Source: an uncultured Syntrophobacteraceae bacterium (GTDB lineage Bacteria > Desulfobacterota > Binatia > UBA9968). Taken from it: a stretch of 64,000 nucleotides of DNA. The first letter of the stretch is position 1. The number at the start of each line of letters is the position of its first letter. The stretch lies in NCBI GenBank assembly GCA_964404195.1, contig CAYOJC010000002.1:38886-102885 (forward strand). The letters are read 5' to 3'. The notes below the pieces were generated by a model. It made no database searches and was not told the origin of the DNA. It saw only the letters and a list, made by a program, of their open reading frames with translations. The translations under genes and the position numbers were made by a program. Positions 1-19,161 of this stretch are shown in pieces.

Positions 1-841
1 TGAACTCGCCAAACGGCCCCTCGTTCATTTCAGCTCCCGGCTGCCAGTGTCCCTCGATGACCAGCTCCGCGTCCGCAGGAATCGGGAGTCCCGTCACCTC
101 GCCGCGGATGACCGGCATACGCCGCCCTTGAATGGCGCCGATGTAGCCGAACTCCTGGCTCTGGCCCAGGCTCCGCGGCAGCGGCCTGCCGCCGACAACC
201 GCATAGAGAGGATGCTGACCGAGACTGATTGCCACGGGAGCGGCTTCGCCGCGGCTGTGGTAGCCTTTCATATCGGCCAGCCCGTGCCGTATGGGCGCCA
301 TATAAATTCCCACCTTGCGCTTGTCGTGCAATTGAACGCGATAGACGCCGATGTTGAGCTGCTCCGTCTGGCAGTCTCGCGTTATCACCGCGCAGCCGGT
401 GCCGATGAAACGTCCGCCGTCCTTTTCGTGCCATCGCGGCGACGGGTATTTGAGCATGTCGATGTCGTCGTCGCGGTGGATTTCCTCCATCACCGGCCCG
501 TCGGCGACCCATTCCGGCGGAAAATTTTTGCACTCCGCTTCCCACTGAGGCATTTTCTCTTTGATCATGTAGACCAGTTCCTTGGTCGAGGCGGGGTCCT
601 TCTCGAGGCCCAGCGCGATCGCCGGCCGGATCGGATCTTCGCTCGCGTGGGTCACCGTATTCGCCGCGACGCGGTAGCCCTTCGGGTAGTCGACAATCTC
701 GTCGAAAAGAAGCGCGGGCGAGCCTTTTTTCTTGATCATCAGCTCGGTGATCGCGCCGATCTCCAAATCCCAATGGGCGCCGCGGACGACTTTGAGCTTG
801 CCGCGGCTGTCCACCTCACGAAGCCAATCGCGCAGATCCAT
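1..841 (-). CDS. UbiD-family (prFMN-dependent) decarboxylase, partial (3' end beyond window edge)
   Basis: Reverse-strand translation from ATG at 841 reads MDLRDWLREVDSRGKLK...RWHEKDGGRFIGTG...GPFGEF with no stop before position 1. It is clearly paralogous to the complete UbiD-like protein at 3483-4910 (same WHExDGGRxIGTG and FGEFTG blocks). It is absent from the ORF track because it is open-ended. Confidence 0.8.
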   Translation of the reverse strand, partial: MDLRDWLREVDSRGKLKVVRGAHWDLEIGAITELMIKKKGSPALLFDEIVDYPKGYRVAANTVTHASEDPIRPAIALGLEKDPASTKELVYMIKEKMPQWEAECKNFPPEWVADGPVMEEIHRDDDIDMLKYPSPRWHEKDGGRFIGTGCAVITRDCQTEQLNIGVYRVQLHDKRKVGIYMAPIRHGLADMKGYHSRGEAAPVAISLGQHPLYAVVGGRPLPRSLGQSQEFGYIGAIQGRRMPVIRGEVTGLPIPADAELVIEGHWQPGAEMNEGPFGEF

Positions 842-877
842 TTTATTGCCTCCTCGTTTTTATCCGGGACAAATTTT

Positions 878-1612
878 TCAAGACGATCCTCGATTCCACC
901 ATTCGCCCTTGCGCACTTTGTCCTTGTAGTAGGTCCATTCCGCGATGTAATGACGGGGACCCCTGACCTTGTCCAAATATTCACGATGCTTCTTCTTGGT
1001 GCCTTCCATGTAGCGGCGGAACTCGTCCGAGGTGCTTTGGAACCCCAGCGAATTTGCTACGGCTATGATTCGCGCCGTCCGCTCGAGATAGAGCGATCGG
1101 ATACATACCTCGTCGATGCTTTTTCCCAACATCACGATTCCATGACCATTGAGCACCATGGCGTTGCCTTGTTTCATCGCCGCCGCCAATTCTTTCCCTT
1201 CGTCCTCATCGATAATAAAAATGGGCTTCTCAAAGATCGGCACCCCGCCCGCAAAGGGGCCCGACTGCATGTGAACCGCATCGATCTTTGTTCCCGCCAG
1301 TCCGAGGGCGATGCACATCGGAGCATGGCAGTGCACGATCGCCTGCACGTCCGGCCGCGCCTTGAATATCTCCGTGTAAATCGCGGCCTCCGTCGGCGGG
1401 CGGCCGATGCCGGAAATCTTTTTCATGTCGAAATCGAATCGGATGATCCAATCCTCCACGTCTTCTTGTTCGGGCCGGCGAAACATTTTGAGCGTCACGC
1501 CGTCCCCCGACGGCATTCGCGTCCCGACGTGCCCCCAGATGTCGCCCACCTCCCATTCGAGAATCCTGGACGCGATCTTGAGATCTTCTTCAATCACATC
1601 AAGCTCACTCAT
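878..1612 (-). CDS. class II aldolase/adducin family protein
   Basis: 244 aa with HCHAP...NHGIV metal-binding motifs typical of fuculose-phosphate-aldolase-like class II aldolases/decarboxylases. The long + strand ORF 47-1633 covering it is antisense noise. Confidence 0.8.
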   Translation of the reverse strand: MSELDVIEEDLKIASRILEWEVGDIWGHVGTRMPSGDGVTLKMFRRPEQEDVEDWIIRFDFDMKKISGIGRPPTEAAIYTEIFKARPDVQAIVHCHAPMCIALGLAGTKIDAVHMQSGPFAGGVPIFEKPIFIIDEDEGKELAAAMKQGNAMVLNGHGIVMLGKSIDEVCIRSLYLERTARIIAVANSLGFQSTSDEFRRYMEGTKKKHREYLDKVRGPRHYIAEWTYYKDKVRKGEWWNRGSS

Positions 1613-1666
1613 TGTTGCCTCCTGTGTGTTTAACTATTTGTTTAACGCTTCGGAAACGCATTCGGG

Positions 1667-3472
1667 TTAGGCGGTTCCTCCCAGGCGGACGTTGCGGTCA
1701 CCGAGCTTCTGCATCACTAGAAACAAGATTCCCATAACCACAACCATAATGACGCCCAGGGCTGCAGCGACATTTAAGTCTCCCCTGATCCAGGCCGTCC
1801 AGACATAAGTCGAAAGGATCTGATTGTCGGGCCCAGAGAGCATCAAAGCGATACTGACTTCTCGGAAGCTCAGCAGACCCGTCCAGAGACCCAGAAACAG
1901 CATCGACCTGCCAATGATGGGCACAATCACCTTCCACCACACGATGATCTGCCTTGAACCGCATATATACGCGGCTTCCTCCAGCTCTCGGCTGATCTGC
2001 AAGAGAGCCGCATTCGTGACCCGTGTGCCGTAGGAAATCCTCGTGACCACAAAGGCCACCACGAGAATGCTCACGGTGCCGTAAAAGGGAACCGAGGGAA
2101 ACCACATACGAACCATCAAGCTGAAAACTAGTAGAGCCAACGCAAACCCAATGTTGGGAAAAGCATGGGGCAGCATCACGATGCTGTCCATAACGCCCCC
2201 GATGCGCATTTTGGTTCGGGTGACGATCCACGAGATCATCAAACTCAAGAACATGACCCAGAGGGAGACACTCACCATAAGGACCAAAGTGTTCCACACG
2301 ATCCTGCCGATTCCCGGCAGGTTCATGATTCTCTTGTACGATCCCAAGTTGAGCGCAGCAAAGGCTTCGATCGAAGGCATCTGTAAGTAAGGCAACAACG
2401 ACGCCCATACGAGAACGACCAACGGCAGGACCACGGCCAAAAGGAGATAAAACAAGACGAACAGGACGCCGAGGTTCTTGAACGAACCCAGATCGTGGAT
2501 TCGGGCAACGTAACCCTTGCCTGTTACCGTAACAAACCGATGGCTCTGGCGGATCGTGACGTAATAATAGTAGAGCGCGATCAACGACGGAACGGCGATC
2601 AGGGCCCCGTAGACTCCGCTGATGCCGTATTGCGGCACCGACGCGGTAAGCGTGTAAATGCTGAGAAACATCTCGGTCGCCAGAACCGGGTGTTTTCCCC
2701 CCAAGCTTCCCAGCAGAGCGGCGATCTCGAACATCGAAATCGCCGTCATGAACACATAGATCGCGCCGCCCAGCACTGCGGGCCAAAGAAGCGGAACGAT
2801 AACCCATCGGAACGTGCTCCAGCGCCTCGCGCCGCTGACTTCGCTAGCTTCCTCCAAGGCAGGATCCAGCGCGCGCATAGGACCCGATAAAAGAAAAACC
2901 AGCGTCGACGTCATCATCAATCCCTGGATATAAGCAATTCCCACCAGGCTCTGAATATCGAACAACGGCCGCTCGAGGTCGAAAACGTGCATCAAAAAGC
3001 GATTGATGAATCCGACATTGGGGCTGAGCAGAAGAATCCATGCGATTCCTTTGAGAAATCCTGGAACGATAACGGAGACTGCGATGAGCGTGAGGAAAAG
3101 ATTGGCGTAGGGCAAATTGGTGCGGTGCAATAACCAGGCGAGCGGTATCCCGAAGGCCAGAGCCACCGCGACGGTCCCGATCCCGACAAGCAAGGTATTG
3201 GGGATCACCTCGAAAAACAAATGGCTGTTGAGAACCGCCCTATAGTTTCCCAGCGACAACTTTGATTGAATCGGAAAATCCACCAGGAAACTGGCCAGCA
3301 GAACGATGGCTACGAGAATGAGGATGACCAAACAAACAGCGCCCGCAAACAAAAGAGGAATGGTGTTCCCGGCCAGAAATTTCTCGGCAATACCTTGCCG
3401 AAGGCTCGGGCGGGCCGCGCCTTTCGGCGGCACGGCGGAGCTTACGTCGATAGCTCGATGGCTTGAATCCAT
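1667..3472 (-). CDS. ABC transporter permease, fused two-domain Fe3+/thiamine/spermidine type (FbpB/AfuB-like)
   Basis: 601 aa and highly hydrophobic, with two tandem binding-protein-dependent permease domains. It is paralogous to 11185-12981. Confidence 0.85.
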   Translation of the reverse strand: MDSSHRAIDVSSAVPPKGAARPSLRQGIAEKFLAGNTIPLLFAGAVCLVILILVAIVLLASFLVDFPIQSKLSLGNYRAVLNSHLFFEVIPNTLLVGIGTVAVALAFGIPLAWLLHRTNLPYANLFLTLIAVSVIVPGFLKGIAWILLLSPNVGFINRFLMHVFDLERPLFDIQSLVGIAYIQGLMMTSTLVFLLSGPMRALDPALEEASEVSGARRWSTFRWVIVPLLWPAVLGGAIYVFMTAISMFEIAALLGSLGGKHPVLATEMFLSIYTLTASVPQYGISGVYGALIAVPSLIALYYYYVTIRQSHRFVTVTGKGYVARIHDLGSFKNLGVLFVLFYLLLAVVLPLVVLVWASLLPYLQMPSIEAFAALNLGSYKRIMNLPGIGRIVWNTLVLMVSVSLWVMFLSLMISWIVTRTKMRIGGVMDSIVMLPHAFPNIGFALALLVFSLMVRMWFPSVPFYGTVSILVVAFVVTRISYGTRVTNAALLQISRELEEAAYICGSRQIIVWWKVIVPIIGRSMLFLGLWTGLLSFREVSIALMLSGPDNQILSTYVWTAWIRGDLNVAAALGVIMVVVMGILFLVMQKLGDRNVRLGGTA

Positions 3473-3482
3473 GCGCGAAATT

Positions 3483-4910
3483 TCACTTCGCCAAATCGGC
3501 AGCCCATTTCCGTTCGACAGCGCGCCTCATCTCTTCGCCGAAACGGTTGACTATCGGGAACCGCTCGCGCCAGGAAAACGGCCGGCAGGCCGTCAGTACC
3601 GCGCGAGAACTGTTCGGTTGCCCGGCCAGATCCTTTTTCTCGGGGGCAATCAGAGGATCCAGAATCGTGCTGCGGCAGTTACGCACAATCTCGACGGCAT
3701 CCTGGGGCTCGCAGCGCGTCGCCAATGCCCACAGCACTTCCTGCTCGTTTGTCGGGTCGATATCGCTGTCGACGACGATCACGAAGCGCCCCAATCCGCC
3801 GAGGGAGATGGCCTTGGAGGCGACGTCCCTCGCGTGCCCCTCATACTGCTGGTCGATCGCGATCACCGTGATCATGCCGGAGACTCCCGCGGGAAGGATC
3901 CACACGGAGTGCAGTCCCGGCATTTCCGTCTCTTCGAGGCGTTTCCATAATTGGGCGGTCTGCAGATAATCGCGCAGCCGCTCCCCCGTGGGCGGGCGCA
4001 TCGGCGGCGCGCCCAACATCACCGGATCGTCGCGCCACATGATTTTCTTCACGTTGATGACCGGCCCTTTTTCATCCGACCACGTGTAGTATCCGGTGAA
4101 TTCGCCGAAGGGCGCCTCGGCGTGGCTCTTTTGATCTTTAGGAGGACATTCGCCTTCGATCACGATCTCGGCTTCAGCCGGGAAAGGAAGACCGGTACGG
4201 GAGCCGCGCAAGACCATCAAAGACTCGCCCGCCAATCCGCCGGCCATCTCGAGCTCGGAGACTCCCTGAGCCCACTTCATGCATCCCGAAGCCCAGATCA
4301 AAGGATGCTCGCCCGCGACGACGATCATCGGACAGGCCTGGCCTTTGCTCCAATACTTCTTGCAGATCGTGCTCCCGTTATTGCCGGGCGCCATGTATAA
4401 ACCGCCCAAATTTCGCTCGTGGACCTGGACGCGATAAGGCGCGGCGTTGATCGCCCCGGTCTCGGGATCGCGCACGATCACCAGATCTCCGGTCCCTATG
4501 TAGCGTCCGCCGTCGTGCTCGTGCCATTTCGGAGACGGGAAGCGGAACAGATCGATGTCGCTTCCCTCGGCGACATTTTCGAGAACCGGACCGGACTTCA
4601 CTTCCGTGAGCGGCATCGGCTTGATGGCCCGCAGCTTGTCCTTGAGTTGACGCACGAGCTCCAGAGGAGCCGCGTGCTCATCGACGCCGAGGGTGAAAGC
4701 GAAGCGGCGGTCGGTCACCAGCGCGTTCGTAAGAACACGGTGGCCCTTGGGATAACCGGAAATTTCATCGAAGAGCAGCGCGGGCCCTTTGCGCTCGGCG
4801 AAGAGTTCCGTGAGCACGCCGATCTCGAGGTCCCAATCCGCCCCGGCCAGCTTCTTGAGCTCGCCTCGTTCGTCAACCGCCTCGATCCACTTTCTGAAAT
4901 CAAAACTCAT
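3483..4910 (-). CDS. UbiD-family decarboxylase
   Basis: 475 aa, MSFDFRKWIEAVDERGELKK...GEFTGYY, with the characteristic UbiD/3-octaprenyl-4-hydroxybenzoate carboxy-lyase fold signature along the full length. Confidence 0.9.
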   Translation of the reverse strand: MSFDFRKWIEAVDERGELKKLAGADWDLEIGVLTELFAERKGPALLFDEISGYPKGHRVLTNALVTDRRFAFTLGVDEHAAPLELVRQLKDKLRAIKPMPLTEVKSGPVLENVAEGSDIDLFRFPSPKWHEHDGGRYIGTGDLVIVRDPETGAINAAPYRVQVHERNLGGLYMAPGNNGSTICKKYWSKGQACPMIVVAGEHPLIWASGCMKWAQGVSELEMAGGLAGESLMVLRGSRTGLPFPAEAEIVIEGECPPKDQKSHAEAPFGEFTGYYTWSDEKGPVINVKKIMWRDDPVMLGAPPMRPPTGERLRDYLQTAQLWKRLEETEMPGLHSVWILPAGVSGMITVIAIDQQYEGHARDVASKAISLGGLGRFVIVVDSDIDPTNEQEVLWALATRCEPQDAVEIVRNCRSTILDPLIAPEKKDLAGQPNSSRAVLTACRPFSWRERFPIVNRFGEEMRRAVERKWAADLAK

Positions 4911-4934
4911 CGTCGACCTCCGGCAGCGGTTTTA

Positions 4935-6071
4935 TTATTTTCCTCGCCACGCCTTAGCTATAGCCTCGGTCCATGCCTTGCCTTCCTCTGTTTCGCTCAT
5001 CCATTTGAGTTTCTTAAGACTCTCTTCATTGTCCACGTAGCTCACCATCTTCACTTTGTTGGTTTTCATCCTCTCCATCATCTCTCGTCCGATCTTGGAG
5101 CTCTTTAGATACAGGTGGGGCTGCGAAGTCGCCTTTTCGAAAACTCCCTGCCCTTCCTCGCTCAATGTCCACAGGACAAAGAGCGTCGCCGCGTTGGGAT
5201 GGCGGGCGCCCTCGCGCACGAAATACATCGCTTCGTTGATGGTCGTATAGTCGCGGAAAAATTCCAAACCGATCGGAGCGCGCGCATCCCTCTCCTTGAA
5301 CTCGTGATAGTAGTGGGCATTGGCATCGACGAACTTGAATTCGCCCAGGAGCATCCGGTTGACGGCGGCCGACTCGCGCTCGGTCGCCGCACTGTTTCTT
5401 CCCATGCCTCGGACGATCTCGAGCGCCTGATCCTTGTCGTAGGCCAACAGCGAGGCGTCGGCGTCCGAGGTCCAGGGCGGAAGCGCATACGTCCCTTTGA
5501 ATCTGGCCTCCCCCAAATCTTTATGGGTCTTCGGAAGGTCCTTGGCGGATATCAGCTTGGTGTTGTAAATGATCGCTTTCAGCCAGTGACCGAACGTAAA
5601 CACGCGGCCTTTGAAAGGACCGGGACTTACTTTATCGATGACGGGCAGCGCCTGGGGAGCGATCTCGCTCAAGACCGCTTCTAAATTGTCGATCCGCTTG
5701 ACGCCGTTGACCTCCAGGAGATGGATGATTTCATGGGCGCCGCCGAACTGCACGTCGTAGGTGGGGACGATCCCCTGTTTGGTTTCGCCGATCGCCTGGC
5801 TGATCTTCTGAAACGAGGCGCCCGAAGCATCGACCTTGAGCTCGATCTCCACGCCCAAACGCTTGAGATAATTCCTGAAGCCGGCGGTGACTTCATCGCT
5901 GCCGCTGGTCGTTGGATACAAGTAAACCTGTTTTTCTTTGCGAGCCCCTTCGACGAGCTGATTAAAAGCGGCCTTACCCGGGGAAGGCGCCGATGCAGCT
6001 CCGGCAGATGACGGAGTCTGGCTGATCAAAATCGATAACCCGACTAAAACAGCGGCTTTGAGCGTTTTCAT
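4935..6071 (-). CDS. ABC transporter substrate-binding protein (Fe3+/thiamine/polyamine SBP family), paralog 0
   Basis: Trimmed to MKTLKAAVLVGLSILISQTPSSAGA, which has a signal peptide with GGAGG 5 nt upstream. The rest is about 40-50% identical to the three SBPs at 13015-17717. Confidence 0.85.
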   Translation of the reverse strand: MKTLKAAVLVGLSILISQTPSSAGAASAPSPGKAAFNQLVEGARKEKQVYLYPTTSGSDEVTAGFRNYLKRLGVEIELKVDASGASFQKISQAIGETKQGIVPTYDVQFGGAHEIIHLLEVNGVKRIDNLEAVLSEIAPQALPVIDKVSPGPFKGRVFTFGHWLKAIIYNTKLISAKDLPKTHKDLGEARFKGTYALPPWTSDADASLLAYDKDQALEIVRGMGRNSAATERESAAVNRMLLGEFKFVDANAHYYHEFKERDARAPIGLEFFRDYTTINEAMYFVREGARHPNAATLFVLWTLSEEGQGVFEKATSQPHLYLKSSKIGREMMERMKTNKVKMVSYVDNEESLKKLKWMSETEEGKAWTEAIAKAWRGK

Positions 6072-6106
6072 ATTCCCTCCAATTACGATTCCACGCAGTC
6101 GCGCGA

Positions 6107-6571
6107 TCACTTGGAATTCTTGCTGGTCTCCACGACGGCCTGGACGATTTTTCGATAGCCCGTACAACGGCACAGATTGCCGGCCAGGTACCATCTGACC
6201 TCTTTCTCGCTGGGATGCGGTATCTTGTGAAGCAACGCTTTAGCCATCAGGATCATTCCCGAAGTGCAGTACCCGCACTGCGCCGCATCGTAGCGGGCAA
6301 AATTTTCCTGGAGGGGATCCAGCGGCCCGTCGGCCGCCAACCCCTCGATGGTAACGATTCGCTTCCCCTGGCATTTTGCCAACGGGGTCATGCATGAGTA
6401 GCGGGCCTCGCCGTCGATCAAAACCGTGCAGGCGCCGCAACCGCCGTGATCGCACCCTCGCTTCGCGCCCAAAAGATGCAGTCGGTCACGCAGCGCAGTC
6501 AGCAGCGGCTCCGACAATTCCGCCGACACGCTCTGCTCTTCGCCGTTTACGTCGAGCGAAATCTCAACCAT
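6107..6571 (-). CDS. molybdenum hydroxylase small subunit, (2Fe-2S)-binding (CoxS/XdhC-like)
   Basis: Two Cys clusters (CDHGGCGACTV and CGYCTSGM...CRCTGY). Start MVEISLDVNG lies 4 nt after the FAD-subunit stop, indicating translational coupling. Confidence 0.9.
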   Translation of the reverse strand: MVEISLDVNGEEQSVSAELSEPLLTALRDRLHLLGAKRGCDHGGCGACTVLIDGEARYSCMTPLAKCQGKRIVTIEGLAADGPLDPLQENFARYDAAQCGYCTSGMILMAKALLHKIPHPSEKEVRWYLAGNLCRCTGYRKIVQAVVETSKNSK

Positions 6572-7475
6572 GACGGTCGACCCCTTTCGCATCCCTTGCT
6601 TGCAAAACATCGATTTTCGCCGCTCCGGCAATAGCGTCGCGCAGCAAAAATCCGCACAACGACCTCTTGTAATCCGCCGAGGCGGTAAAGTGGTCCGTCA
6701 AGGTAAGCTCCGTGGAAACGATGCCGGGCACGGCCGCCAGCGCTTTGCCGTCGATTTGCTTTCCGATCAAAAATTGCTCGGTCCGCGTGAGAGAAAAATA
6801 ACCGTCGGCGCGCGCCCCGACGACGAGCTTCGCGTCCACGCAGCGCCCCGCGCCGTCCGAACGAATAGAGGCCGACGCGTTGACGACGGCCCAATCCGAG
6901 GCCGACCGGCGAAATTTCTTAAACTGAGAGCGGCTTCCCGGCGCCGGCCACGGCAGAAGAAACCCGCTGATGAGCGCGGTCTTTCCGAGGAGAGACTTCT
7001 CCGGTCCGCTCAGCAGATCGCCCACATCGATCGTCCGTATCTCCCGCGAAACCTGGACCACCGCCTTTGCCCGTAGCGACATGAGGGCGGGCACGATATC
7101 GATAATCGGAACCCCGCAGGCGACGGCTCCGCCCAGAGTCGCAGCGTTTTTGATCTGATCGGGCCCCGTGGCGTAGGCCGCCTGCACAAACGCTTCGAAT
7201 CCCGCGGCGCGAAACGCGTCGGAGCCAATGACTTTGTTGAGAGTGACCATGGCACCGGCTTTGATCGAGTCCCCGCCGTTCTCGATGGTATTGAGCCCGA
7301 GGCCCTCGAGGTCCACCACCGCTTTAATTTTCAGCAGCGCGCCGCGCTCTCGCTGTTCGTGAACGTAAGTTCCGCCGGCATAGAGCAAAGTCTCGCCGCG
7401 GTGCTCCTCCATTGCCGCGACGGCTTCGTTCAACGTCTTGGGAGTCAACCAATTACTGGAACTAAATCCACTCAT
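6564..7475 (-). CDS. molybdenum hydroxylase FAD-binding subunit (CoxM-like)
   Basis: 303 aa with a FAD-binding PCMH-type domain (LLYAGGTYV, AATLGGAVA) and a CO-dehydrogenase flavoprotein C-terminal domain. Confidence 0.85.
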   Translation of the reverse strand: MSGFSSSNWLTPKTLNEAVAAMEEHRGETLLYAGGTYVHEQRERGALLKIKAVVDLEGLGLNTIENGGDSIKAGAMVTLNKVIGSDAFRAAGFEAFVQAAYATGPDQIKNAATLGGAVACGVPIIDIVPALMSLRAKAVVQVSREIRTIDVGDLLSGPEKSLLGKTALISGFLLPWPAPGSRSQFKKFRRSASDWAVVNASASIRSDGAGRCVDAKLVVGARADGYFSLTRTEQFLIGKQIDGKALAAVPGIVSTELTLTDHFTASADYKRSLCGFLLRDAIAGAAKIDVLQARDAKGVDRHG

Positions 7476-7493
7476 GATGGTTTGGCGATTCTC

Positions 7494-11184: not shown

Positions 11185-12981
11185 CTAGCCTCCACCGCCC
11201 AGCTGAGGCAGACTCCTCGGCTCTCCTATTTTTCCGGTGGCTCTTTGCACGACGAGAATCAGCAGGCCGGTGATAAGGATCAAAACAATGCTGAGCGCGG
11301 AGGCTTGAGACAAATCTCCCTGACGCCATAGAATCCAGAGCTGGGTGGCGAGGACCTTGTTCCTCGGACCGATAAGCAGCAAAGCCATGCTCACTTCGCG
11401 AAAAACCAGGAGCGCCGTCCAGAGTCCGGCAAATACCAAAGAAGGCCGGATCAGCGGCATCATCACGCGCAACATGGAAACCCACTTGCGCGCGCCGCAT
11501 ATCAACGCGGCATCTTCCAGCTCCTGATGGACCTGGATGAGCGCCGCGTTGGTGATGCGAGTTGCGTACGACAGCCGGTTCAAAACATTGCCCGCAATGA
11601 TGATCCAGACCGTATTGTAAAAAGGCACCGAGGGAAACCACTTGGCGGTCATGATGCCCGCGATCAGCAATGCAAAAGCAAATCCTATTCCCGGAATGGC
11701 ATGGGGCAACATGGAAATCGTATCCACCAGTCTCCTCGTCCGAAGTTTGGTTCGGACCACGACCCAGGATATCATGAAGCTGAAAAACAATACGAGCACC
11801 GAGCTGCCGACGACTAGGAGAAGCGTGTTTCTCATGACGTCGAAGCCGCCGAGCAAGTAGTGAATCTCCGAGTACCACTTGAAGCTGACCAATGACAGCG
11901 CTTCGACGGAAGGCATTCTGAGCGAAGGAAGAAGGGAAGCCCATAGCAAAACCGCGAACGGCAAAAACACGGCCAGCGCGAGGTAGAAGAGGACAAATAG
12001 AATGGCGGGGTAGCGAAGACTTCCCAGCGGGAAGTCTTTGGGCTTGTAGCCTTTGCCCGTGATCACCGCGTAGCGGTGCGCCTGCTTGAGGGATTGGAAA
12101 TAGAAAAACAACGCGAGCAAACTCGGCGCCATGATCAGCAATCCATAGACTCCGGCGACGCCGTATTTGATCTCAGAGCTGCCTTCGAAGGGCTGGACGG
12201 CGAGAAAAATCTCCGTCGCCAAGATCCGGTTTTCACTCAACCCTCCAAGCAAACCGGCCACCTCGAACATGGCGATGGCCGTCATGAAAATGTAGATGAT
12301 CCCTCCCAGGATGGCCGGCCTGAGCATGGGCGAGGTAATCCAGATAATGGTCTTCAGGCGGTTCGCCCCGACCACCTCGGCGGCTTCCTCGAGGGCGGAA
12401 TCGAGGGAACGCATGGGCCCCGAGATAAGAAAGAACATCGACGGGGTCAGCATCAAACCTTGGATAAAAGAAATTCCCCACAGGCTGTTGATATCGAACG
12501 GGGCTTCGCGCAACTGGAAAATTCCCATCAGGAGCCGGTTGAGGAGACCGACCTGTGGACTCAGCAGCATGATCCATCCCATGGCCTTCACCAATCCCGG
12601 CATGATCACCGTCACGGCGAGCATGGTGATGAAGAGGGAGCGCATCGGGATGTCAGTCCGGTTCAGCAACCAGGCCAAAGGAATGCCGAAAAAAATGGTG
12701 ATCGTAACGGTGCCCAGGCCGACCCCGACCGTATTCAGAACAACCGTCCAGAAATGCTCGGAACCGAATACCTCGGCGTAATTGTCCAGAGAGAACCCGG
12801 ACTCGAAGGGCAGGCCGCGGGAGAAGCTCATCCACAGAATCAGCGTCGTCAACAGCAAGATGACCGCGCACGCCACCCAGGCGAAAAAAACGGCTATGGA
12901 GTTGCCGCTGATGATTTCCCGCAAGGATTTCGCCGCCTGTACACCAGACGACGAGAGCGGGACGTCGGCCACCTTTTCCAT
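11185..12981 (-). CDS. ABC transporter permease, fused two-domain (FbpB-like)
   Basis: 598 aa, paralog of 1667-3472, adjacent to the ATPase. Confidence 0.85.
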   Translation of the reverse strand: MEKVADVPLSSSGVQAAKSLREIISGNSIAVFFAWVACAVILLLTTLILWMSFSRGLPFESGFSLDNYAEVFGSEHFWTVVLNTVGVGLGTVTITIFFGIPLAWLLNRTDIPMRSLFITMLAVTVIMPGLVKAMGWIMLLSPQVGLLNRLLMGIFQLREAPFDINSLWGISFIQGLMLTPSMFFLISGPMRSLDSALEEAAEVVGANRLKTIIWITSPMLRPAILGGIIYIFMTAIAMFEVAGLLGGLSENRILATEIFLAVQPFEGSSEIKYGVAGVYGLLIMAPSLLALFFYFQSLKQAHRYAVITGKGYKPKDFPLGSLRYPAILFVLFYLALAVFLPFAVLLWASLLPSLRMPSVEALSLVSFKWYSEIHYLLGGFDVMRNTLLLVVGSSVLVLFFSFMISWVVVRTKLRTRRLVDTISMLPHAIPGIGFAFALLIAGIMTAKWFPSVPFYNTVWIIIAGNVLNRLSYATRITNAALIQVHQELEDAALICGARKWVSMLRVMMPLIRPSLVFAGLWTALLVFREVSMALLLIGPRNKVLATQLWILWRQGDLSQASALSIVLILITGLLILVVQRATGKIGEPRSLPQLGGGG

Positions 12982-13014
12982 GTCTATGAGACCCGTACCC
13001 GCAAAGCGGTGGGC

Positions 13015-14133
13015 CTATTTCCCCTCCCTCTGAGCTCTGGCAATTGCCTGGCTGTACTTCCGGCCCTCCTCGGTCCCGAGCCAGAGGAATTTGTCCAGGT
13101 TCTGCTGGTTATCGAACCAACTGACAGGCTTTACGTTGGCTTGCCGCAGTTTCTCCTGAGTCTTTCGCGTCACCGGACCCGTCCCGAGCGACAGGTTTTC
13201 TATCACCGAATATTTCTCGAAAATTCGGTTCGCTTCCTCCGTGGTGGCCCACAGAGCAAAGAGCTTGGCGGCGTTCGGATGCTTCGCGCCTTTGCGCACC
13301 ACGTAGGTGACCTCGCGCGTCGGCGTCAAGTCCGAAAAAAAACTCATTTCGATCGGCGCATTGGGGTCTTTCGCTTTGTGGTTGAAATAGTAATGGGTGT
13401 TGGTCTCCAAAAATTTCAAATCGCCGATCATCATCCGCTCGATCGCCGCGGCGTAATGGAGAACTTGCGGCTTGAGTTTTCCCCACGTCCGGACGATATC
13501 CAGCCATTCGTCCTTGTCATATCGAAGCAGGCCCATGAGAGTGATGGTGGTCCAGGGAGGAATCGTGAAAGCGCCCCGGTATTTCGGATTCCCCATATCC
13601 TTCCAGGTTTTGGGGAGATCCTGCTGCGGGATCGCCTTGGGGTTATACATTAAGACGGTCACCCGATTGGCCCACACGAAGCCGTAGCCCGCGACGCCCA
13701 CCGGGCTGGTTTTTTCTTTGACCTTGTAGGCTTCCGGCGAGACCGCTGCGAGGAAAGCTTCCCAATTTGCAATGCGCTCGATTCCCCCGGCCTGAATCAA
13801 ATCGAGCACCACGGGAGGTTCTCCTTGCATCACGTCGAAAGTCGGAGGAATTCCGGACTTTGCCTCCGCAACCGCCTGGTTGAACTTCTGGGACTCTTGT
13901 CCTGAAAGATCCGCATTGCCCGTTAGGTTGAGGCCGAATCGCTTCTTGAAAGCATCGGTCAGCTCTTTTCCACCCTTCTCTCCTTGAGAAGAAGTGATAG
14001 TGAGGTCCAATTGATCTTCGCGTCGGGCCGCCTCGATGAGACGAGCTAAAGGGCCGTCCCCCTGGGCAAGCGCCATCGTTGTGTTTCCGAGGGTCGTGAT
14101 AGCAAAAAGAACCGCAAGGATTTTGGTTTTCAT
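13015..14133 (-). CDS. ABC transporter substrate-binding protein, paralog 1
   Basis: Signal peptide MKTKILAVLFAITTLGNTTMALA with a GGAGA Shine-Dalgarno. It shares conserved blocks NPKxIPQxDLPKTWKDMG...KGAKHPNAAKLFALW with the other three SBPs. Confidence 0.85.
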   Translation of the reverse strand: MKTKILAVLFAITTLGNTTMALAQGDGPLARLIEAARREDQLDLTITSSQGEKGGKELTDAFKKRFGLNLTGNADLSGQESQKFNQAVAEAKSGIPPTFDVMQGEPPVVLDLIQAGGIERIANWEAFLAAVSPEAYKVKEKTSPVGVAGYGFVWANRVTVLMYNPKAIPQQDLPKTWKDMGNPKYRGAFTIPPWTTITLMGLLRYDKDEWLDIVRTWGKLKPQVLHYAAAIERMMIGDLKFLETNTHYYFNHKAKDPNAPIEMSFFSDLTPTREVTYVVRKGAKHPNAAKLFALWATTEEANRIFEKYSVIENLSLGTGPVTRKTQEKLRQANVKPVSWFDNQQNLDKFLWLGTEEGRKYSQAIARAQREGK

Positions 14134-14237
14134 GGAAATTATCTCCACTCAACCGGGTGTCAATCAGACGAGACTTTCACATTTTCGAATTCATCTTGAC
14201 CCGTAAGAAATACCGGGCGTTTAAGCCGGAGGAACTC

Positions 14238-15386
14238 CTACTTTCCCTCCCGCTGGGCTCTGGCGATCGACTGGCTGTATTTTCTCCCTTCCTCCGTGCC
14301 AAGCCAAAGAAACTTCTCAGCGGTCTTGGGGCTGTCGAACCAACTCGCCGGCTTGATGTTCTTCCGTTCCAGAATCTTCAAAATCTTGCTCGACACGGGA
14401 CCCCGAGCCAATGCTAAATTTTCTATGGAATTGTATTTTTCGATCACTCCATTGGCTTCCGCGCCCGTGACCCACAGAGCGAAGAGCTTGGCGGCGTTCG
14501 GATGTCGAGCCCCCTTCCTGACCAGGTACATCACATTTCTCCTCGGAGTCAGGTCTTCGAAAAAGGATACCTCGATCGGAGCGCTCGGATCGCTCGCCTT
14601 CTGCTCGATATAGATATCCGTGTTGCCGTAGGTAAACTTCAGATCGCCCAGCATGACTCGTTGAGCCGCCGCATCGTAAACGAGAACATCCCTTTTGTTC
14701 CTCCCCCAGGATCGTATGACGTCAAGCAATTCGTCCTTTTCGTATTTGAGGAGCCCCATCAGACTTAGCGAGGTAAAAGGGGGCACGGAAAAAGCCGCCT
14801 TGTATTTTGGATCCCCCATCTGTTTCCAGGTCTTGGGAAGTTCCGCTTCCGATATTGTTTTCGGGTTGTAAAGAATCGCCGCCGTGCGGGTAGACCAAAG
14901 AAACCCGTAACCCGCCAGGTTGTGAGGACTGACTTTATCTTTCACTTTGGCGGCCTCGGGAGCCGCCTCCGCCAAAAGCGACTCCCAGTTCGCAATAGGC
15001 TCGACACCGCCGGCTTCTTTGAGACTGAGGACATTCTCGTCGGTGCCCTGCATGAGATCGTACGTAGGAGGGATACCGACCTTGCTCTCCGTCACCGCTT
15101 GATTGAACTTCTGAGACTCCTGACCCGCGAGATCCGCATTGATCTTGAGCTCCAGCCCGAACCGACGTTTGAAAGCGTCGGTGAGATCTTTCCCTCCCTG
15201 CTCCCCTCCGACCGATGAGCTGATCATGAGGTCTAACTGGCCTTCCTTGCGCGCTCCATCGATGAGCCGCTGCAATGCGGCGGACTTCTGGGCGAGCGCA
15301 GGCGCCGCTGCGACCGTGATCGAGATAAAAAGCACGACGGCCGAAAACCTTTTCACTTTTTTCCTCTTCCAGGCAGGTTCTCTCAT
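14238..15386 (-). CDS. ABC transporter substrate-binding protein, paralog 2
   Basis: 382 aa with a signal peptide and the same conserved blocks (KGARHPNAAKLFALW, LGTEEGRKYSQSIARAQREGK near-identical to the paralog 1 C-terminus). Confidence 0.85.
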   Translation of the reverse strand: MREPAWKRKKVKRFSAVVLFISITVAAAPALAQKSAALQRLIDGARKEGQLDLMISSSVGGEQGGKDLTDAFKRRFGLELKINADLAGQESQKFNQAVTESKVGIPPTYDLMQGTDENVLSLKEAGGVEPIANWESLLAEAAPEAAKVKDKVSPHNLAGYGFLWSTRTAAILYNPKTISEAELPKTWKQMGDPKYKAAFSVPPFTSLSLMGLLKYEKDELLDVIRSWGRNKRDVLVYDAAAQRVMLGDLKFTYGNTDIYIEQKASDPSAPIEVSFFEDLTPRRNVMYLVRKGARHPNAAKLFALWVTGAEANGVIEKYNSIENLALARGPVSSKILKILERKNIKPASWFDSPKTAEKFLWLGTEEGRKYSQSIARAQREGK

Positions 15387-15553
15387 TTGTGAAACCGCAT
15401 TTCGGATAGTGAAAATGGCTGCGCGGCCACATTTATCTCTCGCTCACAGCCTTGTCAAGTCCCGTTTGGAATTTTTCGCGGGGAGTGAAGCGCTTGAGAT
15501 GTCGCGAGCGAATCTGATAGGGAGAATCAACTTTGCGCGACGGAGGGCCAACC

Positions 15554-16498
15554 ATGCCACGGATCAAAATCATTTCTACGGGCGGAACCATCGTGAACAC
15601 CACGAAGGGATTGATCGGCGTCGAGGAACTCTTAAAAGATATTCCACAAGCCAGGGAATGGGCGGAGTTTGACATCGACGAGGTGACCCGGATCAGAAGT
15701 GGATCGATTCGTCTCGATCAATGGATGGAAATTGCCCGCTCGGTCAACCAGGCCGCCAACGATCCGGCGATCGACGGCGTGATCCTCACGCACGGCACTT
15801 TTACCCTTGAAGAGACTGTCTACTTTTTGCATCTGTGCGTGCCGATCTCCAAGCCGATGGTCTGCGTCGCTTCGCAGCGGACGCATGCCTCGGTCGGCAA
15901 CGACGGAGACCGAAATTTTCTTGACGCCGTCCGAGTGGCGCTCTCGCCCGACGCCGGAGAGAAAGGAGTTCTCGTCGTTCTTCACGAGGAGATTCATTCC
16001 GCCCGAGATGTCGTCAAGACCAATCAACGGCCGGGAGGATTCGTCTCGCGAGCTCATGGCCTACTGGGCCACGTCGAAAATGATCAGGTCAGTTTTTACC
16101 ACGCGCCCATGCGCCGGCACACTTTCCGGTCGGAATTCGACATTCGCCGGATTACCGAGCTTCCGCGAGTGGACGTTATCGCCGCGTACGTGGGCGCGGA
16201 TGCCGCCGCGGCGCGAGCGTTCGTCAACGCGGGCGCGCGAGGACTGGTGGTCCATGGCTATGCGTTCAACGGCAATCCGGCGATCGATCAAAGGGAAGAG
16301 CTGAAGCGCATTGCGGCCTCAGGAACTCCGGTAGTGCTCTCGAGCCGCGGCGGATGGGGACGCGTGCCGGCGAGCTCAGACGACGGTTTCGTTCGAGGAG
16401 ACACTTTGCCCGCGCATAAAGCGCGCATCTTATTGATGCTGGGGTTGACTCAAACCTCCGACCCGCGTGAGATCCAGCGAATGTTCAACGAATATTAG
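15554..16498 (+). CDS. L-asparaginase (type I/II asparaginase family)
   Basis: N-terminal IISTGGTI threonine motif, HGTFTLEET, about 315 aa. Start MPRIKIIS has GGAGGG 5 nt upstream. It sits on the opposite strand inside the SBP array. Confidence 0.85.
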   Translation: MPRIKIISTGGTIVNTTKGLIGVEELLKDIPQAREWAEFDIDEVTRIRSGSIRLDQWMEIARSVNQAANDPAIDGVILTHGTFTLEETVYFLHLCVPISKPMVCVASQRTHASVGNDGDRNFLDAVRVALSPDAGEKGVLVVLHEEIHSARDVVKTNQRPGGFVSRAHGLLGHVENDQVSFYHAPMRRHTFRSEFDIRRITELPRVDVIAAYVGADAAAARAFVNAGARGLVVHGYAFNGNPAIDQREELKRIAASGTPVVLSSRGGWGRVPASSDDGFVRGDTLPAHKARILLMLGLTQTSDPREIQRMFNEY

Positions 16499-16516
16499 CC
16501 CGGATTATTCACTTAT

Positions 16517-16541
16517 GAGGGCAATCGAGCGGCAAGCCCTC
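16517..16541. terminator. candidate bidirectional terminator hairpin (GAGGGC-N13-GCCCTC) between convergent asparaginase and SBP genes
   Basis: A 6-bp GC-rich inverted repeat lies in the 73-bp convergent intergenic space. No obvious U-tract follows. Confidence 0.35.
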
Positions 16542-16571
16542 CGGAGCGACGGCAATGGGCGGTCGCGCAAC

Positions 16572-17717
16572 TTACTTTCCGTCCTTCTGCGCCCGGGCGA
16601 CCGCATTGGCATACTCTTTTCCCTCTTTGGACTCGAACCATTGGAATTTCGCCACAGTCTCCGGACTGTCAAACCAGCTCCAGACTTTAATGTTGCGATC
16701 CTTCAAGACCTTCGCGATTTTCTGGGAGATGGGGCCTTTGCTCAAAACCAAGTTTTCGATGTACGCGTGCCGCTCAAAAATCTCATTCGCCTCGGCGCTG
16801 GTGGCCCATAAAGCAAATAACTTTGCCGCGTTGGGATGCTTCGCGCCTTTCCTGACCACGTACAGGACCTGTCTCATGGTCGTCAAATCCTCAAGGAAGG
16901 TCTCTTCTATCGGGGCGCTCGGATCCCTCAGTTTTTGGTCGAAATAGATGTCCGCGTTGCCATAAAAAAACTTGAGATCCCCAAGCAGCATGCGTTGAGC
17001 GGCCGCATCATAGGTGAAAACCTGGCGCTTGTTTCTGCCCAACGCCCGCACGATCTCGAGCCACTCATTCTTGTCGTATTTAAGAATCCCCATCAGGAGC
17101 GCCGAGATCCACGGAGGCATCGAGAAGGCGCCGCGGTACTTCGGATCTCCCATCTGCTTCCATGTCTTCGGAAGCTCGGCTTCGGAAATGAGCTTGGGGT
17201 TGTACAACAGGGCAACGGTCCTCGTGGACCAGAGAAAACCCCACCCGGCGAGAGTCTCCGGACTCACCTTCTCTTTGATTTTAAATGCTTCGGGCACGGC
17301 CTCGGCCAAAACCGCCTGCCAGTTTTCCACCCGCTCTGCGCCGCCCACGTCCATCAAGCTCAAAACGTTCGCCGCCTCGCCCTGCATAAGATCAAAGGTG
17401 GGAGGGATACCGCTCTTCGCCTCGGCCACGGCACGGTTGAACTTCTGCGATTCCTGGCCGGAAAGATCCGGGCTGATATTGAGCGTGTCCAATCCGAAGC
17501 GCTTCTTGAAAACAGCAATCAGCTCGCGCGCGCCTTTCTCTCCGGCGGACGAAGTGATCATGACATCGAGCTGGCCTTCCTTGCGCGCCCCATCGATGAG
17601 GTCCTGGAGCATTTTTTTTCCGTCCGCCGATGCGGCTTGCGCCGAGGAATGCGTCGCAAACAAGAAGAACAGAGAAACAAGCAAAGACCGGCAAATCAAA
17701 GTCCGGCGCTCTACCAT
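16572..17717 (-). CDS. ABC transporter substrate-binding protein, paralog 3
   Basis: 381 aa with a signal peptide and the same family blocks. Confidence 0.85.
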   Translation of the reverse strand: MVERRTLICRSLLVSLFFLFATHSSAQAASADGKKMLQDLIDGARKEGQLDVMITSSAGEKGARELIAVFKKRFGLDTLNISPDLSGQESQKFNRAVAEAKSGIPPTFDLMQGEAANVLSLMDVGGAERVENWQAVLAEAVPEAFKIKEKVSPETLAGWGFLWSTRTVALLYNPKLISEAELPKTWKQMGDPKYRGAFSMPPWISALLMGILKYDKNEWLEIVRALGRNKRQVFTYDAAAQRMLLGDLKFFYGNADIYFDQKLRDPSAPIEETFLEDLTTMRQVLYVVRKGAKHPNAAKLFALWATSAEANEIFERHAYIENLVLSKGPISQKIAKVLKDRNIKVWSWFDSPETVAKFQWFESKEGKEYANAVARAQKDGK

Positions 17718-17897
17718 TTTGGCCTCCTATGAGTATTCAGTTTCGTCATCACGCGCGGCTCGGATCGCGTTTCACAAAGCGAACCCGCGTTTCGGTATTT
17801 GTTTTATCGCGTCGGCAAGACCGATGTCAAGCCGGCTTCGATCGCAGGCTGTTGACGGAGATCTCCGGCATCGGAGGAGAAGCGGAGCAGGACTCGT

Positions 17898-18827
17898 TTA
17901 TTTGCGTCGATAGCGTTCCATGGCCGGATTTACTTTGATTTTCTTTCCGTCTTCCCAGAGATAAAAACCCTTGCTGTTTTTCATGCCGAGAAATCCCGCC
18001 GCAACGAGCTTGCGGAGCAGATCCGGGGCCTTGTACCTCGGCCCGAGGTCCGTTTCCAGAACCTCGGCGATCGAGAGCGTGGTATCGAGGCCGACGTAGT
18101 CCAAAGTCGTGATCGGCCCCATTTTTTGGCCCAGGCACAGCGTGGTTTTGTCGGCATTCTCGCAGTCCATCACGCCCTCTTCGACGACCCGGACCGCTTC
18201 GATAAGAAAGGGAACAAACATGTGGTTGATGCCAAAACCCGCCTTGTCTTCAGCGAAAATCGGCTCTTTGCCGAGCTCGCGGCTGAAGTCGGTAACTCGA
18301 TTGTACGTCTCATCGGAGGTGAGCAGGCCGCGTATCAGCTCGCACCCGGGCTGCACCGGCACGGGATTCATAAAGTGCATGCCCATAAATTTTTCCGGCA
18401 GAGCGTAGACGGAAGCCAGGCGGGTGATCGAGATCGAGGACGTGTTCGAAACGAGAAGCTTTCGGTAGCCTGACTCGGCGAGCGAGGCGATGACATTTTT
18501 TTTGACGACCTCGTTCTCGACAGCTGCCTCGATCACGATGTCGGCGGCCAGGAAATCTCTCGAATTCAAAGAGCACGTGATCGCCGCCAAGGTCTTACTC
18601 TGCTGATCGGCGGAGATCCCTCTGCTCCCCGAGGATTTTTCGTAGGCCTCGATCAAACGTCCGAGGCTCTCCCGGATGCGCTCCAGGCCCTTCTGCAAAA
18701 TGACTTCATTGACGTCGCTTAGCGTGACTTCGAACCCGCGCATCGCCGCAACCTGTGCGATGCCGCTGCCCATCAATCCTGCACCTATGACGCCGACTTT
18801 TTTGATTTCGGAACCCATCGTCAACAC
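17898..18827 (-). CDS. hbd: 3-hydroxyacyl-CoA (3-hydroxybutyryl-CoA) dehydrogenase
   Basis: Rossmann motif VGVIGAGLMGSGIAQV and a C-terminal 3HCDH domain. Confidence 0.85.
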   Translation of the reverse strand: MLTMGSEIKKVGVIGAGLMGSGIAQVAAMRGFEVTLSDVNEVILQKGLERIRESLGRLIEAYEKSSGSRGISADQQSKTLAAITCSLNSRDFLAADIVIEAAVENEVVKKNVIASLAESGYRKLLVSNTSSISITRLASVYALPEKFMGMHFMNPVPVQPGCELIRGLLTSDETYNRVTDFSRELGKEPIFAEDKAGFGINHMFVPFLIEAVRVVEEGVMDCENADKTTLCLGQKMGPITTLDYVGLDTTLSIAEVLETDLGPRYKAPDLLRKLVAAGFLGMKNSKGFYLWEDGKKIKVNPAMERYRRK

Positions 18828-18828
18828 C

Positions 18829-19161
18829 TCACGCGTTTTCGCCGTTGTCAGATCGGCCCGACCAAACTCGTTCTACCCTGTACGGCAACGCCACTCCAAG
18901 AGCCGCCTGTCGAGCTGGCGCCTGACCCAACCCTGCGGAGAGGACATTCCCCATGATGACCTCGTCGACCTCTTCCCCGCTCAGATTGATTCGATTCAAG
19001 CTCTCTGCAATTGTGACACTCCTGAGCTTCGTAGCCGACAGTGGGCCGAGAGAACCGCTGAAACTGCCAATAGAGGTACGAACGGCACTGACGATACCAG
19101 CTTCCTTTACATTTCCCCGCTTTCCGTTCAAGGAGCAGCGTGCGAGATCGCCGCTCGGCAT
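18829..19161 (-). pseudogene. acetyl-CoA acetyltransferase (thiolase) N-terminal fragment, 3'-truncated
   Basis: The first 85 aa or so match the thiolase N-terminus (IVSAVRTSIGSFSGSL...EVDEVIMGNVLSAGLGQAPARQAALG). It then diverges and stops after 110 aa, directly abutting hbd, whereas thiolases are about 390 aa. Confidence 0.7.

Follow-up and report, generated by a model that had tools for sequence, protein, structure and literature searches.

The stretch of DNA analysed here, 64 kb in length and referred to throughout as the window, comes from an uncultured bacterium of soil or groundwater, labelled Syntrophobacteraceae and placed among the Binatia (contig CAYOJC010000002.1, positions 38,886 to 102,885), and this work concerns the interval 1-19161 at its left end, where genes for PhdA-like UbiD decarboxylases, a three-subunit molybdenum hydroxylase and ATP-binding cassette (ABC) importers stand side by side. 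We propose, with a probability of roughly 0.6, that these genes belong to one large catabolic locus, which takes up a set of related aromatic carboxylic acids and funnels them through a route independent of oxygen. The substrates are possibly polycarboxylated; that they are N-heteroaromatic is a suggestion for which we would give somewhat less than even odds. Each of the enzyme families is known, but their combination is not a known one, and the similarity scores and gene content of the cluster place it outside each specific known system. The earlier reading of this region as a (hetero)aromatic-acid catabolic cluster, made in a first-pass annotation from the bare sequence, gains strength from synteny kept in a relative at 80% identity and from the recurrence of UbiD/molybdenum hydroxylase linkage in other phyla; the caution given there, that the substrate cannot be read from sequence alone, holds.

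Gene content and extent of the locus

Families were assigned by Pfam searches with the translations of open reading frames (ORFs), candidate equivalogs were checked against NCBIfam models, and structural matches were sought in the Protein Data Bank (PDB). The interval comprises sixteen reading frames, all but one on the minus strand, and the part of the locus inside the window covers about 17.7 kb (2-17717). Every gene family named by the first-pass annotation is present at its place according to the ORFs and Pfam, and the asparaginase gene is, as stated there, the sole one on the plus strand. The features are as follows (prFMN, prenylated flavin mononucleotide; SBP, solute-binding protein; FAD, flavin adenine dinucleotide):

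2-841, minus: UbiD-1, first 279 codons of a 482-aa PhdA-like prFMN decarboxylase that runs off the left window end (Pfam UbiD_N, UbiD)
878-1612, minus: class II aldolase/adducin-fold protein of 244 aa, putative metal-dependent aromatic hydroxy-acid decarboxylase (Aldolase_II)
1667-3472, minus: fused two-domain ABC permease 2 (two BPD_transp_1 stretches)
3483-4910, minus: UbiD-2, PhdA-like prFMN decarboxylase of 475 aa (UbiD_N, UbiD, UbiD_C)
4935-6071, minus: SBP4, periplasmic solute-binding protein (SBP_bac_8, SBP_bac_6)
6107-6571, minus: molybdenum hydroxylase S subunit with two [2Fe-2S] domains (Fer2, Fer2_2)
6564-7475, minus: molybdenum hydroxylase M (FAD) subunit (FAD_binding_5, CO_deh_flav_C)
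7494-10022, minus: molybdenum hydroxylase L (molybdopterin) subunit of 842 aa (Ald_Xan_dh_C, MoCoBD_1, MoCoBD_2)
10070-11170, minus: ABC ATPase with a TOBE domain (ABC_tran, TOBE_2)
11185-12981, minus: fused two-domain ABC permease 1 (two BPD_transp_1 stretches)
13015-14133, minus: SBP1, periplasmic solute-binding protein (SBP_bac_8, SBP_bac_6)
14238-15386, minus: SBP2, periplasmic solute-binding protein (by Pfam)
15554-16498, plus: divergent cytoplasmic asparaginase/glutaminase-family amidohydrolase without a signal peptide (Asparaginase, Asparaginase_C)
16572-17717, minus: SBP3, periplasmic solute-binding protein (by Pfam)
17898-18827, minus: 3-hydroxybutyryl-CoA dehydrogenase, hbd (3HCDH_N, 3HCDH)
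18829-19161, minus: thiolase N-terminal remnant, a pseudogene (Thiolase_N, positions 3-76 of 260 only)

The run from SBP1 to UbiD-1 consists of eleven genes separated by -8 to +54 nt, with the importer, hydroxylase and decarboxylase genes interleaved, an arrangement that fits one long operon. The short or overlapping junctions reported earlier are thus real, but the S subunit does not start 4 nt past the M stop: the two genes share 8 nt, with the S-subunit ATG at 6571 and the stop of the M subunit at 6564-6566. A search for inverted-repeat operators in three intergenic regions returned nothing usable, and neither Rfam models at their gathering thresholds nor a tRNA scan detected an RNA element or a tRNA gene in the cluster. 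We also considered and rejected horizontal acquisition, as the GC content is even, no integrase or tRNA gene is present, and rpoD and dnaG are neighbours of the locus in relatives as well; the label "island" given to this region at first has accordingly been dropped.

The aldolase-like protein is encoded on several metagenome contigs. One of these, L001, is 100% identical to positions 1-11612 of the window and can therefore be taken as the true leftward continuation of the locus. It supplies the full UbiD-1 gene (L001:10772-12220, 482 aa) and then, in leftward order, a cyclase-family protein (PF04199), a luciferase-like oxidoreductase, RidA, a TAXI/NMT1_3-like protein and an IclR regulator. 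Still further left lie UbiD-3 (478 aa), another luciferase-like protein and the genes for the fifth binding protein and a second ATPase. Beyond this point the locus can be followed in L101, a relative at 97% identity, which encodes one more fused permease (the third), then an amidohydrolase and one more luciferase-like protein (likewise the third). This brings the whole locus to at least 35 kb, so that the cluster is about twice as long as its part in the window. The window itself lacks a transcriptional regulator, as noted before, but the IclR gene does exist about 5.8 kb beyond its left edge, on L001. Two further absences recorded for the window were confirmed: with two UbiX proteins as tblastn queries, no UbiX was recovered from the 64 kb, from the leftward extension on L001 or from five loci of relatives, and no AMP-binding CoA ligase turned up when the larger ORFs were scanned with Pfam. 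The TAXI/NMT1_3-type protein (L001 14546-15532) resembles solute-binding proteins, yet lacks an evident signal peptide, and no TRAP membrane component that could partner it is encoded close by. It is kept in the related locus L085 and may either bind a ligand in the cytoplasm or act as an enzyme.

UbiD paralogues, the molybdenum hydroxylase and their linkage

The three UbiD proteins of the locus are predicted to be prFMN-dependent decarboxylases of the UbiD family with intact catalytic motifs. The three-domain architecture (UbiD_N, the Rift-related UbiD domain and UbiD_C) scores above the Pfam gathering thresholds in UbiD-2 and is indicated for UbiD-1 and UbiD-3 by precomputed hits. Five residues (N155, R160, E219, E265 and E270 in UbiD-2) are invariant in 27 members of the clade, the three paralogues included, with a spacing equal to that of what we take to be N168, R173, E233, E277 and E282 of Fdc1. 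This set corresponds to the catalytic Arg/Glu/Glu and the two metal ligands next to prFMN (see also PMC5818171).

The best match among solved structures is 7PDA, with 291 bits for UbiD-1 and 407 bits (E 7e-121) for UbiD-2, whereas the runners-up, HudA or E. coli UbiD, score 123-160 bits. 7PDA is PhdA, the phenazine-1-carboxylate decarboxylase of Mycolicibacterium fortuitum (PMC10850782). UbiD-1 and UbiD-2 are 38% and 42% identical to PhdA, and all three paralogues fall between these values; they are about 29-30% identical to HudA and 33-41% to one another. Against a PhdA reference sequence rebuilt from the printed alignment with 7PDA, BLASTP gives 378, 277 and 333 bits for the three proteins, and PhdA is closer than HudA to each. 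A neighbour-joining tree unites them in a single clade with PhdA and a UbiD encoded on plasmid 2 of Aromatoleum EbN1, with PpcB as the sister of this clade, and HudA, TtnD, PpcA and proteins resembling phthaloyl-CoA decarboxylase outside.

Three more specific assignments were tried and rejected. Grouping with the UbiD of ubiquinone biosynthesis, the outcome that the first-pass annotation had named as refuting its reading, did not occur, and all paralogues fall in the PhdA clade: the corresponding model NF008175 yields 91-133 bits against a cutoff of 788, short by a factor of about six, and the E. coli UbiD structure (2IDB) 123-151 bits compared with 291-407 for PhdA. With the phenylphosphate carboxylase model TIGR02724, for which the cutoff is 469 bits, the paralogues reach 312, 252 and 134, and the locus has no partner subunits, in contrast to Azoarcus KH32C, in which the Ppc partner subunits are present in the locus. 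HmfF was discarded as well, with 125-132 bits for the HmfF-type structures 6H6V and 6H6X compared with the same 291-407 bits.

PhdA is therefore the nearest characterised decarboxylase, with the same three-domain architecture, a common clade and an N-heteroaromatic substrate (PMC10850782, PMC13040415). It differs from the cluster UbiDs in having an adjacent UbiX (PhdB) and a maturase (PhdC), as no UbiX or HpaC-like gene occurs near the latter, and in not being linked to a molybdenum hydroxylase or ABC importers; its Streptomyces homologues are likewise simple UbiD-UbiX pairs. At 38-42% identity the substrate of PhdA is not transferable to the cluster enzymes. The PhdA-like clade is large (2633 matches at E <= 1e-30 among the candidates scored), and a plasmid collection added nine UbiD matches, all distant. 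The member from Aromatoleum aromaticum EbN1 plasmid 2 (EBN1_RS22170, about 40% identical; locus L096, 62112-87512) sits between two UbiX/UbiD pairs and beside ABC importer, IclR regulator and CoA-transferase genes, in what is presumably the anaerobic phthalate region of this plasmid, and could provide a tractable cultured model for the clade. Literature searches on the phthalate cluster of EbN1 and on sequence similarity networks of UbiD proteins brought nothing relevant.

The S, M and L subunits of the molybdenum hydroxylase have complete architectures, with all Pfam domains above their gathering scores. The L subunit consists of a hammerhead domain and two domains that bind the molybdenum cofactor, its best PDB match is 1RM6_A (HcrA, 350 bits), and its sequence contains the motifs GGTFGGK and AKGLAEV, the latter of which we take to be the catalytic-Glu motif of L subunits of the xanthine dehydrogenase (XDH) family. 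An assignment to 4-hydroxybenzoyl-CoA reductase was rejected: the alpha, gamma and beta models score 502 against a cutoff of 995, 161 against 258 and 65 against 405 bits, respectively, the HcrB (beta) model covers only positions 7-114 of 321 in the M subunit, and the M subunit, with only three scattered Cys residues, lacks the Cys-rich [4Fe-4S] insertion of HcrB. Since all subunits miss the equivalog cutoffs and the FAD subunit lacks the Fe-S insertion, the protein is best called a predicted generic three-subunit hydroxylase of the XDH/CoxL family. The similarity to a hydroxybenzoate route perceived at first fails on the scores of all three HcrABC subunits, and that to a furoate/furandicarboxylate (FDCA) route did not stand up either, with weak HmfF scores and no UbiX or AMP-binding ligase.

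Two peculiarities of the L subunits may be recorded here. Residues ~598-690 of the cluster protein accommodate an insertion of about 75 aa, partly rich in Ala/Gly/Pro/Thr, which also occurs in the L085 orthologue (79% identical) but in none of five further L subunits included in the comparison. In addition, the right end of the window encodes a second XDH-family molybdopterin subunit (61709-63928, minus strand, 739 aa), 35% identical to the L subunit of the cluster; any partner subunits for it would fall beyond the window edge.

The gene order is conserved in a metagenome-assembled genome (MAG) labelled as Deltaproteobacteria, where UbiD-2 is 80% identical and the entire order from the binding protein to IclR is kept. 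The association of UbiD with the molybdenum hydroxylase extends to other phyla. Among 80 loci of a genome collection that encode PhdA-like UbiDs (at most 47% identical; Binatia, Chloroflexota, Thermodesulfobacteriota, Alphaproteobacteria, Acidobacteriota and Streptomyces), a quarter (20) carry an XDH-family gene within 10 kb, 13 within 2 kb and five within 300 nt; in a Binatia genome an L-subunit gene and the next gene, a UbiD, are immediate neighbours (3310/3311). The most elaborate arrangement is found in L087 (64% identical), in which the region 1-16424 contains three adjacent pairs of L-subunit and UbiD genes but only one M and one S gene, and the neighbour-joining tree identifies two of its UbiDs as orthologues of UbiD-1 and UbiD-2. 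This layout suggests that interchangeable catalytic L subunits operate on one M/S electron-transfer pair. A molybdoenzyme of the DMSO-reductase family is embedded among these pairs. Several loci of the collection carry runs of three to five SBP paralogues (beside UbiDs in L011, L012 and L040), and L090 has a part set consisting of a binding protein, a UbiD, a binding protein, an asparaginase and a binding protein.

Uptake, the proposed pathway and rival explanations

All four binding proteins encoded in the window have signal peptides. SBP2 is 62% identical to SBP1, SBP3 56-62% to SBP1 and SBP2, and SBP4 38-40% to the other three, and permease 2 is 51% identical to permease 1. The family is small (233 matches at E <= 1e-10, in MAGs labelled as Binatia and Deltaproteobacteria), and in public sources its members are usually annotated as Fe3+ binding proteins. 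The sequence matches to ferric-binding proteins are weak, and the residues found in the place of the ferric Tyr-Tyr pair are HYY in SBP1 and SBP4, DIY in SBP2 and SBP3, and YEY, ENY, DSY, GYF or EYI elsewhere in the family. A Foldseek search with an AlphaFold2 (AF2) model of SBP1 (pLDDT, the predicted local distance difference test, 91) placed MctA closest, followed by ferric-binding proteins, with agropinic-acid and sugar-phosphate binders in the same fold set; the MctA-type matches have E 1e-15, TM (template modelling) scores of 0.65-0.72 and 17-20% identity. MctA binds Mg-citrate and was itself formerly annotated as an iron binder. We rejected ferric-ion binding of the FbpA type, as the Tyr-Tyr ligand set is hypervariable and the closest structure is a metal-citrate binder; on the same grounds, the modelled fold seems to fit the import of organic, possibly metal-complexed, polycarboxylates better than that of bare iron. 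In the MctA and FbpABC-type importers, as in the systems described here, this binding-protein fold goes with a TOBE-domain ATPase and with two-domain permeases, either fused or paired; what sets the present systems apart is the presence of five SBP paralogues in one catabolic locus. Ranking of the SBP alignment columns by entropy produced no interpretable pocket map without coordinates.

The protein encoded at 878-1612 has its best PDB match in Mlr6791 (2Z7B, E 2.6e-15), presumably the 3-hydroxy-2-methylpyridine-4,5-dicarboxylate 4-decarboxylase of vitamin B6 degradation (a literature search on mlr6791 gave nothing), and the NCBIfam model for 3,4-dihydroxyphthalate decarboxylase is second-best for it (E 2.4e-20, 73 bits against a cutoff of 200). 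With these nearest matches it may be a fourth decarboxylase and not an aldolase. It has the Aldolase_II fold and the His motifs (His-x-His in VHCHAP and a third His in NGHG) in common with HMPDdc/PhtC-type decarboxylases, but the identity is low and the score well under the cutoff.

Other genes could act on the ring and on its nitrogen. The asparaginase is 68-82% identical across Binatia, and in three relatives with different arrangements (82%, 81% and 69% identity) its gene adjoins those for SBPs, UbiDs and L subunits; we count it as a member of the cluster because its place is kept in all three. The cyclase-family protein is a distant relative of isatin hydrolase and kynurenine formamidase, and the luciferase-like proteins have Mer and TIGR03842 as their best matches (154-185 bits against a cutoff of 295).

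We envisage the following scenario. The paralogous binding proteins of the MctA/FbpA fold would capture anionic substrates, perhaps as metal complexes, and feed the importers with fused permeases. Inside the cell, the three diverged PhdA-like UbiDs would strip carboxyl groups from the ring, presumably working in the direction of decarboxylation and not carboxylation, and the metal-dependent enzyme of the class II aldolase fold would do likewise. The molybdenum hydroxylase would place a hydroxyl derived from water on an electron-poor ring carbon, with the electrons travelling via its two [2Fe-2S] clusters and FAD. The resulting ring of the lactam or pyridone type might then be reduced by the Mer-like luciferase-like oxidoreductases, perhaps with F420, and opened by the cyclase-family metal hydrolase, possibly together with the amidohydrolase, after which RidA and the asparaginase-family amidohydrolase could free ammonia. 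The order of these steps is conjectural. The locus would probably be controlled as a unit by the IclR regulator just outside the window.

Parts of this scenario have counterparts in described pathways. The anaerobic route of phenol and 4-hydroxybenzoate (PpcABCD with HcrABC) also combines a UbiD-family enzyme with a three-subunit XDH-family enzyme, but the present locus is without PpcA, PpcC and PpcD, phenylphosphate synthase and a CoA ligase. The furoate/FDCA pathway of Cupriavidus basilensis, with the UbiD HmfF, the UbiX HmfG, the furoyl-CoA dehydrogenase HmfABC and the CoA ligase HmfD, likewise applies a UbiD decarboxylase and an XDH-family hydroxylase to a heteroaromatic dicarboxylate, but no UbiX, CoA ligase or enoyl-CoA hydratase is found in this locus. 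Nicotinate fermentation proceeds independently of oxygen via a molybdenum hydroxylase, a ring reductase and a cyclic amidase, and the Rut pathway of pyrimidine degradation uses the luciferase-like RutA and the RidA-family protein RutC; both share with our scenario the sequence of hydroxylation by water, reduction, hydrolysis of the ring amide and deamination, and they draw on the same broad families (XDH-family enzymes, luciferase-like proteins, RidA and amidohydrolases). This is a likeness of logic without orthology, as the reductases here are Mer/F420-like and not ferredoxin- or FMN-dependent. To our knowledge, the described oxygen-independent routes for N-heterocycles involve no UbiD decarboxylases, and a literature search for a pathway combining UbiD with a molybdenum hydroxylase found no description.

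It is tempting to go further and to regard the pairing of an L subunit with a PhdA-like UbiD as an undescribed oxygen-independent module of hydroxylation and decarboxylation for N-heteroaromatic, possibly polycarboxylated acids, with several L subunits sharing one M/S pair, supply by MctA-like binding proteins, ring reduction of the F420 type and hydrolytic opening. Taken together, this is a tentative idea that we consider rather unlikely to be right in all its parts. If true, it would add a catabolic strategy of a new kind, in wide use among uncultured Binatia, Chloroflexota, Thermodesulfobacteriota and Alphaproteobacteria, and it would replace the oxygenase-dependent decarboxylative hydroxylations of the known aerobic pathways. 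Even apart from this, only a handful of UbiD enzymes have known substrates, and in the PhdA-like clade alone thousands of proteins from metagenomes of soil and groundwater are uncharacterised. The locus offers a conserved context for three of them, with five binding proteins as candidate receptors, a partner molybdenum hydroxylase and a plausible ring-opening set. The identity of its substrate would assign a function to a gene association that recurs over several phyla and would reveal by what oxygenase-free means uncultured Binatia draw carbon and nitrogen from heteroaromatic or polycarboxylated aromatic compounds; the enzymes are also a possible source of new reversible (de)carboxylases for biocatalysis. 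We regard the locus as a well-founded lead and not as a discovery, and as an entry point into a large uncharacterised clade.

Several observations weigh against the reading of the locus as one pathway for aromatic acids. No protein reaches its NCBIfam equivalog cutoff, so that every specific activity is an extrapolation from 30-42% identity. The L subunits adjacent to UbiDs in different genomes are only 27-39% identical to each other, and their linkage may thus represent many pathways. Promoter-like sites number 7, compared with 7.2 +/- 2.7 in shuffled sequence, and show no excess, and terminator-like sites 29, compared with 22.1 +/- 4.5 (about 1.5 standard deviations above); with counts this close to the shuffled level, it is the gene spacing alone that speaks for the operon. 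The luciferase-like proteins would be Mer/F420-type oxidoreductases, with F420 use suggested by family resemblance only, the amidohydrolase of L101 looks closer to the Xaa-Pro dipeptidase type, with a repeat tail, than to a cyclic amidase, and the nitrogen-related genes are individually common housekeeping types. The supply of prFMN is unproven, with no UbiX in cis, though only eight of the 80 related loci carry UbiX within 10 kb.

The alternative that we take most seriously, while holding it to be improbable, is that the substrates are carbocyclic, i.e. hydroxybenzoates, phthalate isomers or other phenolic or benzene polycarboxylates, with the molybdenum enzyme (de)hydroxylating a benzenoid ring or oxidising an aldehyde, and with the asparaginase, RidA and the cyclase as bystanders. 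Outside PhdA, the best named matches do come from anaerobic phenol metabolism (PpcB with 312 bits and the alpha subunit of 4-hydroxybenzoyl-CoA reductase with 502), the aldolase-like protein matches the 3,4-dihydroxyphthalate decarboxylase model, and the EbN1 plasmid carries its PhdA-like UbiD among UbiX/UbiD pairs and genes for an ABC importer, IclR and a CoA-transferase. However, all equivalog cutoffs of the phenol route are missed widely, the scans of the window and L001 reveal no PpcA, PpcC or PpcD, phenylphosphate synthase, CoA ligase or CoA-transferase, and the FAD subunit is without the Fe-S insertion of HcrB. Nitrogen in the substrate is in turn argued for by the asparaginase, with its linkage persisting in rearranged relatives, together with RidA and the cyclase-family hydrolase in the operon.

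A somewhat less probable explanation dispenses with a single pathway and views the locus as a paralogue-rich store of independent modules, each with a binding protein and a UbiD, with or without an L subunit, each for a different acid, and kept together by the history of the lineage and not by a common route. The three UbiDs are indeed as distant from one another (33-41%) as they are from PhdA, the locus counts five binding proteins along with three permeases and as many luciferase-like paralogues, L087 has its three L-subunit/UbiD pairs, L090 only part of the gene set, and L011, L012 and L040 their runs of binding proteins beside UbiDs. The tight packing of eleven genes (-8 to 54 nt) with their types interleaved and the full gene order kept at 80% identity speak against it, and the explanation overlaps with a single catabolic locus instead of excluding it. 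We consider it very improbable that the ABC systems import a metal, either ferric iron or a chelate, and that the enzymes act on an aromatic chelator or siderophore-like ligand so as to recycle or destroy it, in spite of the public annotation of the binding proteins, the presence of HitA, YfuA, SfuA, KfuA and FutA among their sequence and fold matches, and HYY at the ferric Tyr-Tyr position of SBP1 and SBP4. This position is hypervariable in the family and reads DIY in the other two proteins, the top fold match binds metal-citrate and not the ferric ion, and no siderophore synthesis genes, TonB-dependent receptor or Fur-type elements were seen nearby in the Pfam scans of the window or in L001. 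A locus for the uptake and degradation of aromatic carboxylic acids remains our preferred reading.

Right edge of the cluster and the rest of the window

The hbd gene, included in the cluster by the first-pass annotation, is present, and its product scores 274 bits with the NCBIfam model of 3-hydroxybutyryl-CoA dehydrogenase, under the cutoff; it is doubtful that the gene belongs to the pathway. The 333 nt that close the interval had gone unnamed. They hold a thiolase fragment that abuts the hbd start and can be aligned with no more than residues 2-84 of the orthologue in L090, which is intact and has 394 aa. In this Binatia relative, hbd and the intact thiolase gene lie between the binding-protein genes and rpoD/dnaG. 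To the right of the stump, at ~19713-19960 on the minus strand, lies the decayed C-terminal end of an IS3-type transposase: the 82-aa ORF 19713-19961 as called has no Pfam match, and a match to rve_3 (E 3.4e-12) emerges only once a stop codon and a frameshift within a C run have been bridged. This remnant marks a rearranged right edge of the cluster. In view of the position by rpoD/dnaG in L090 and of the stump beside a decayed transposase, hbd and the thiolase remnant are probably edge neighbours of the cluster.

Beyond this edge, positions 19200-23800 form a patchwork of small ORFs, including an HTH_3 protein (20030-20359), DUF2231 and PRC-barrel proteins and an AI-2E transporter ORF (21050-21745) that covers only model positions 3-105 of 327, and the GC content drops to 0.47 at 22-24 kb of the window. 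Genes for electron transfer flavoprotein (ETF) alpha/beta, a PaaA/PaaC-family protein and nicotinate phosphoribosyltransferase occupy 46419-51049, 27-32 kb from the cluster, with no link to it established. A fluoride riboswitch (RF01734, 53.7 bits) is located at 37084-37145 on the plus strand, directly upstream of a Na_H_Exchanger-family gene that is followed by a universal stress protein gene; as the listed ORF start at 37047 overlaps the riboswitch, the true start of the exchanger gene must be further downstream.

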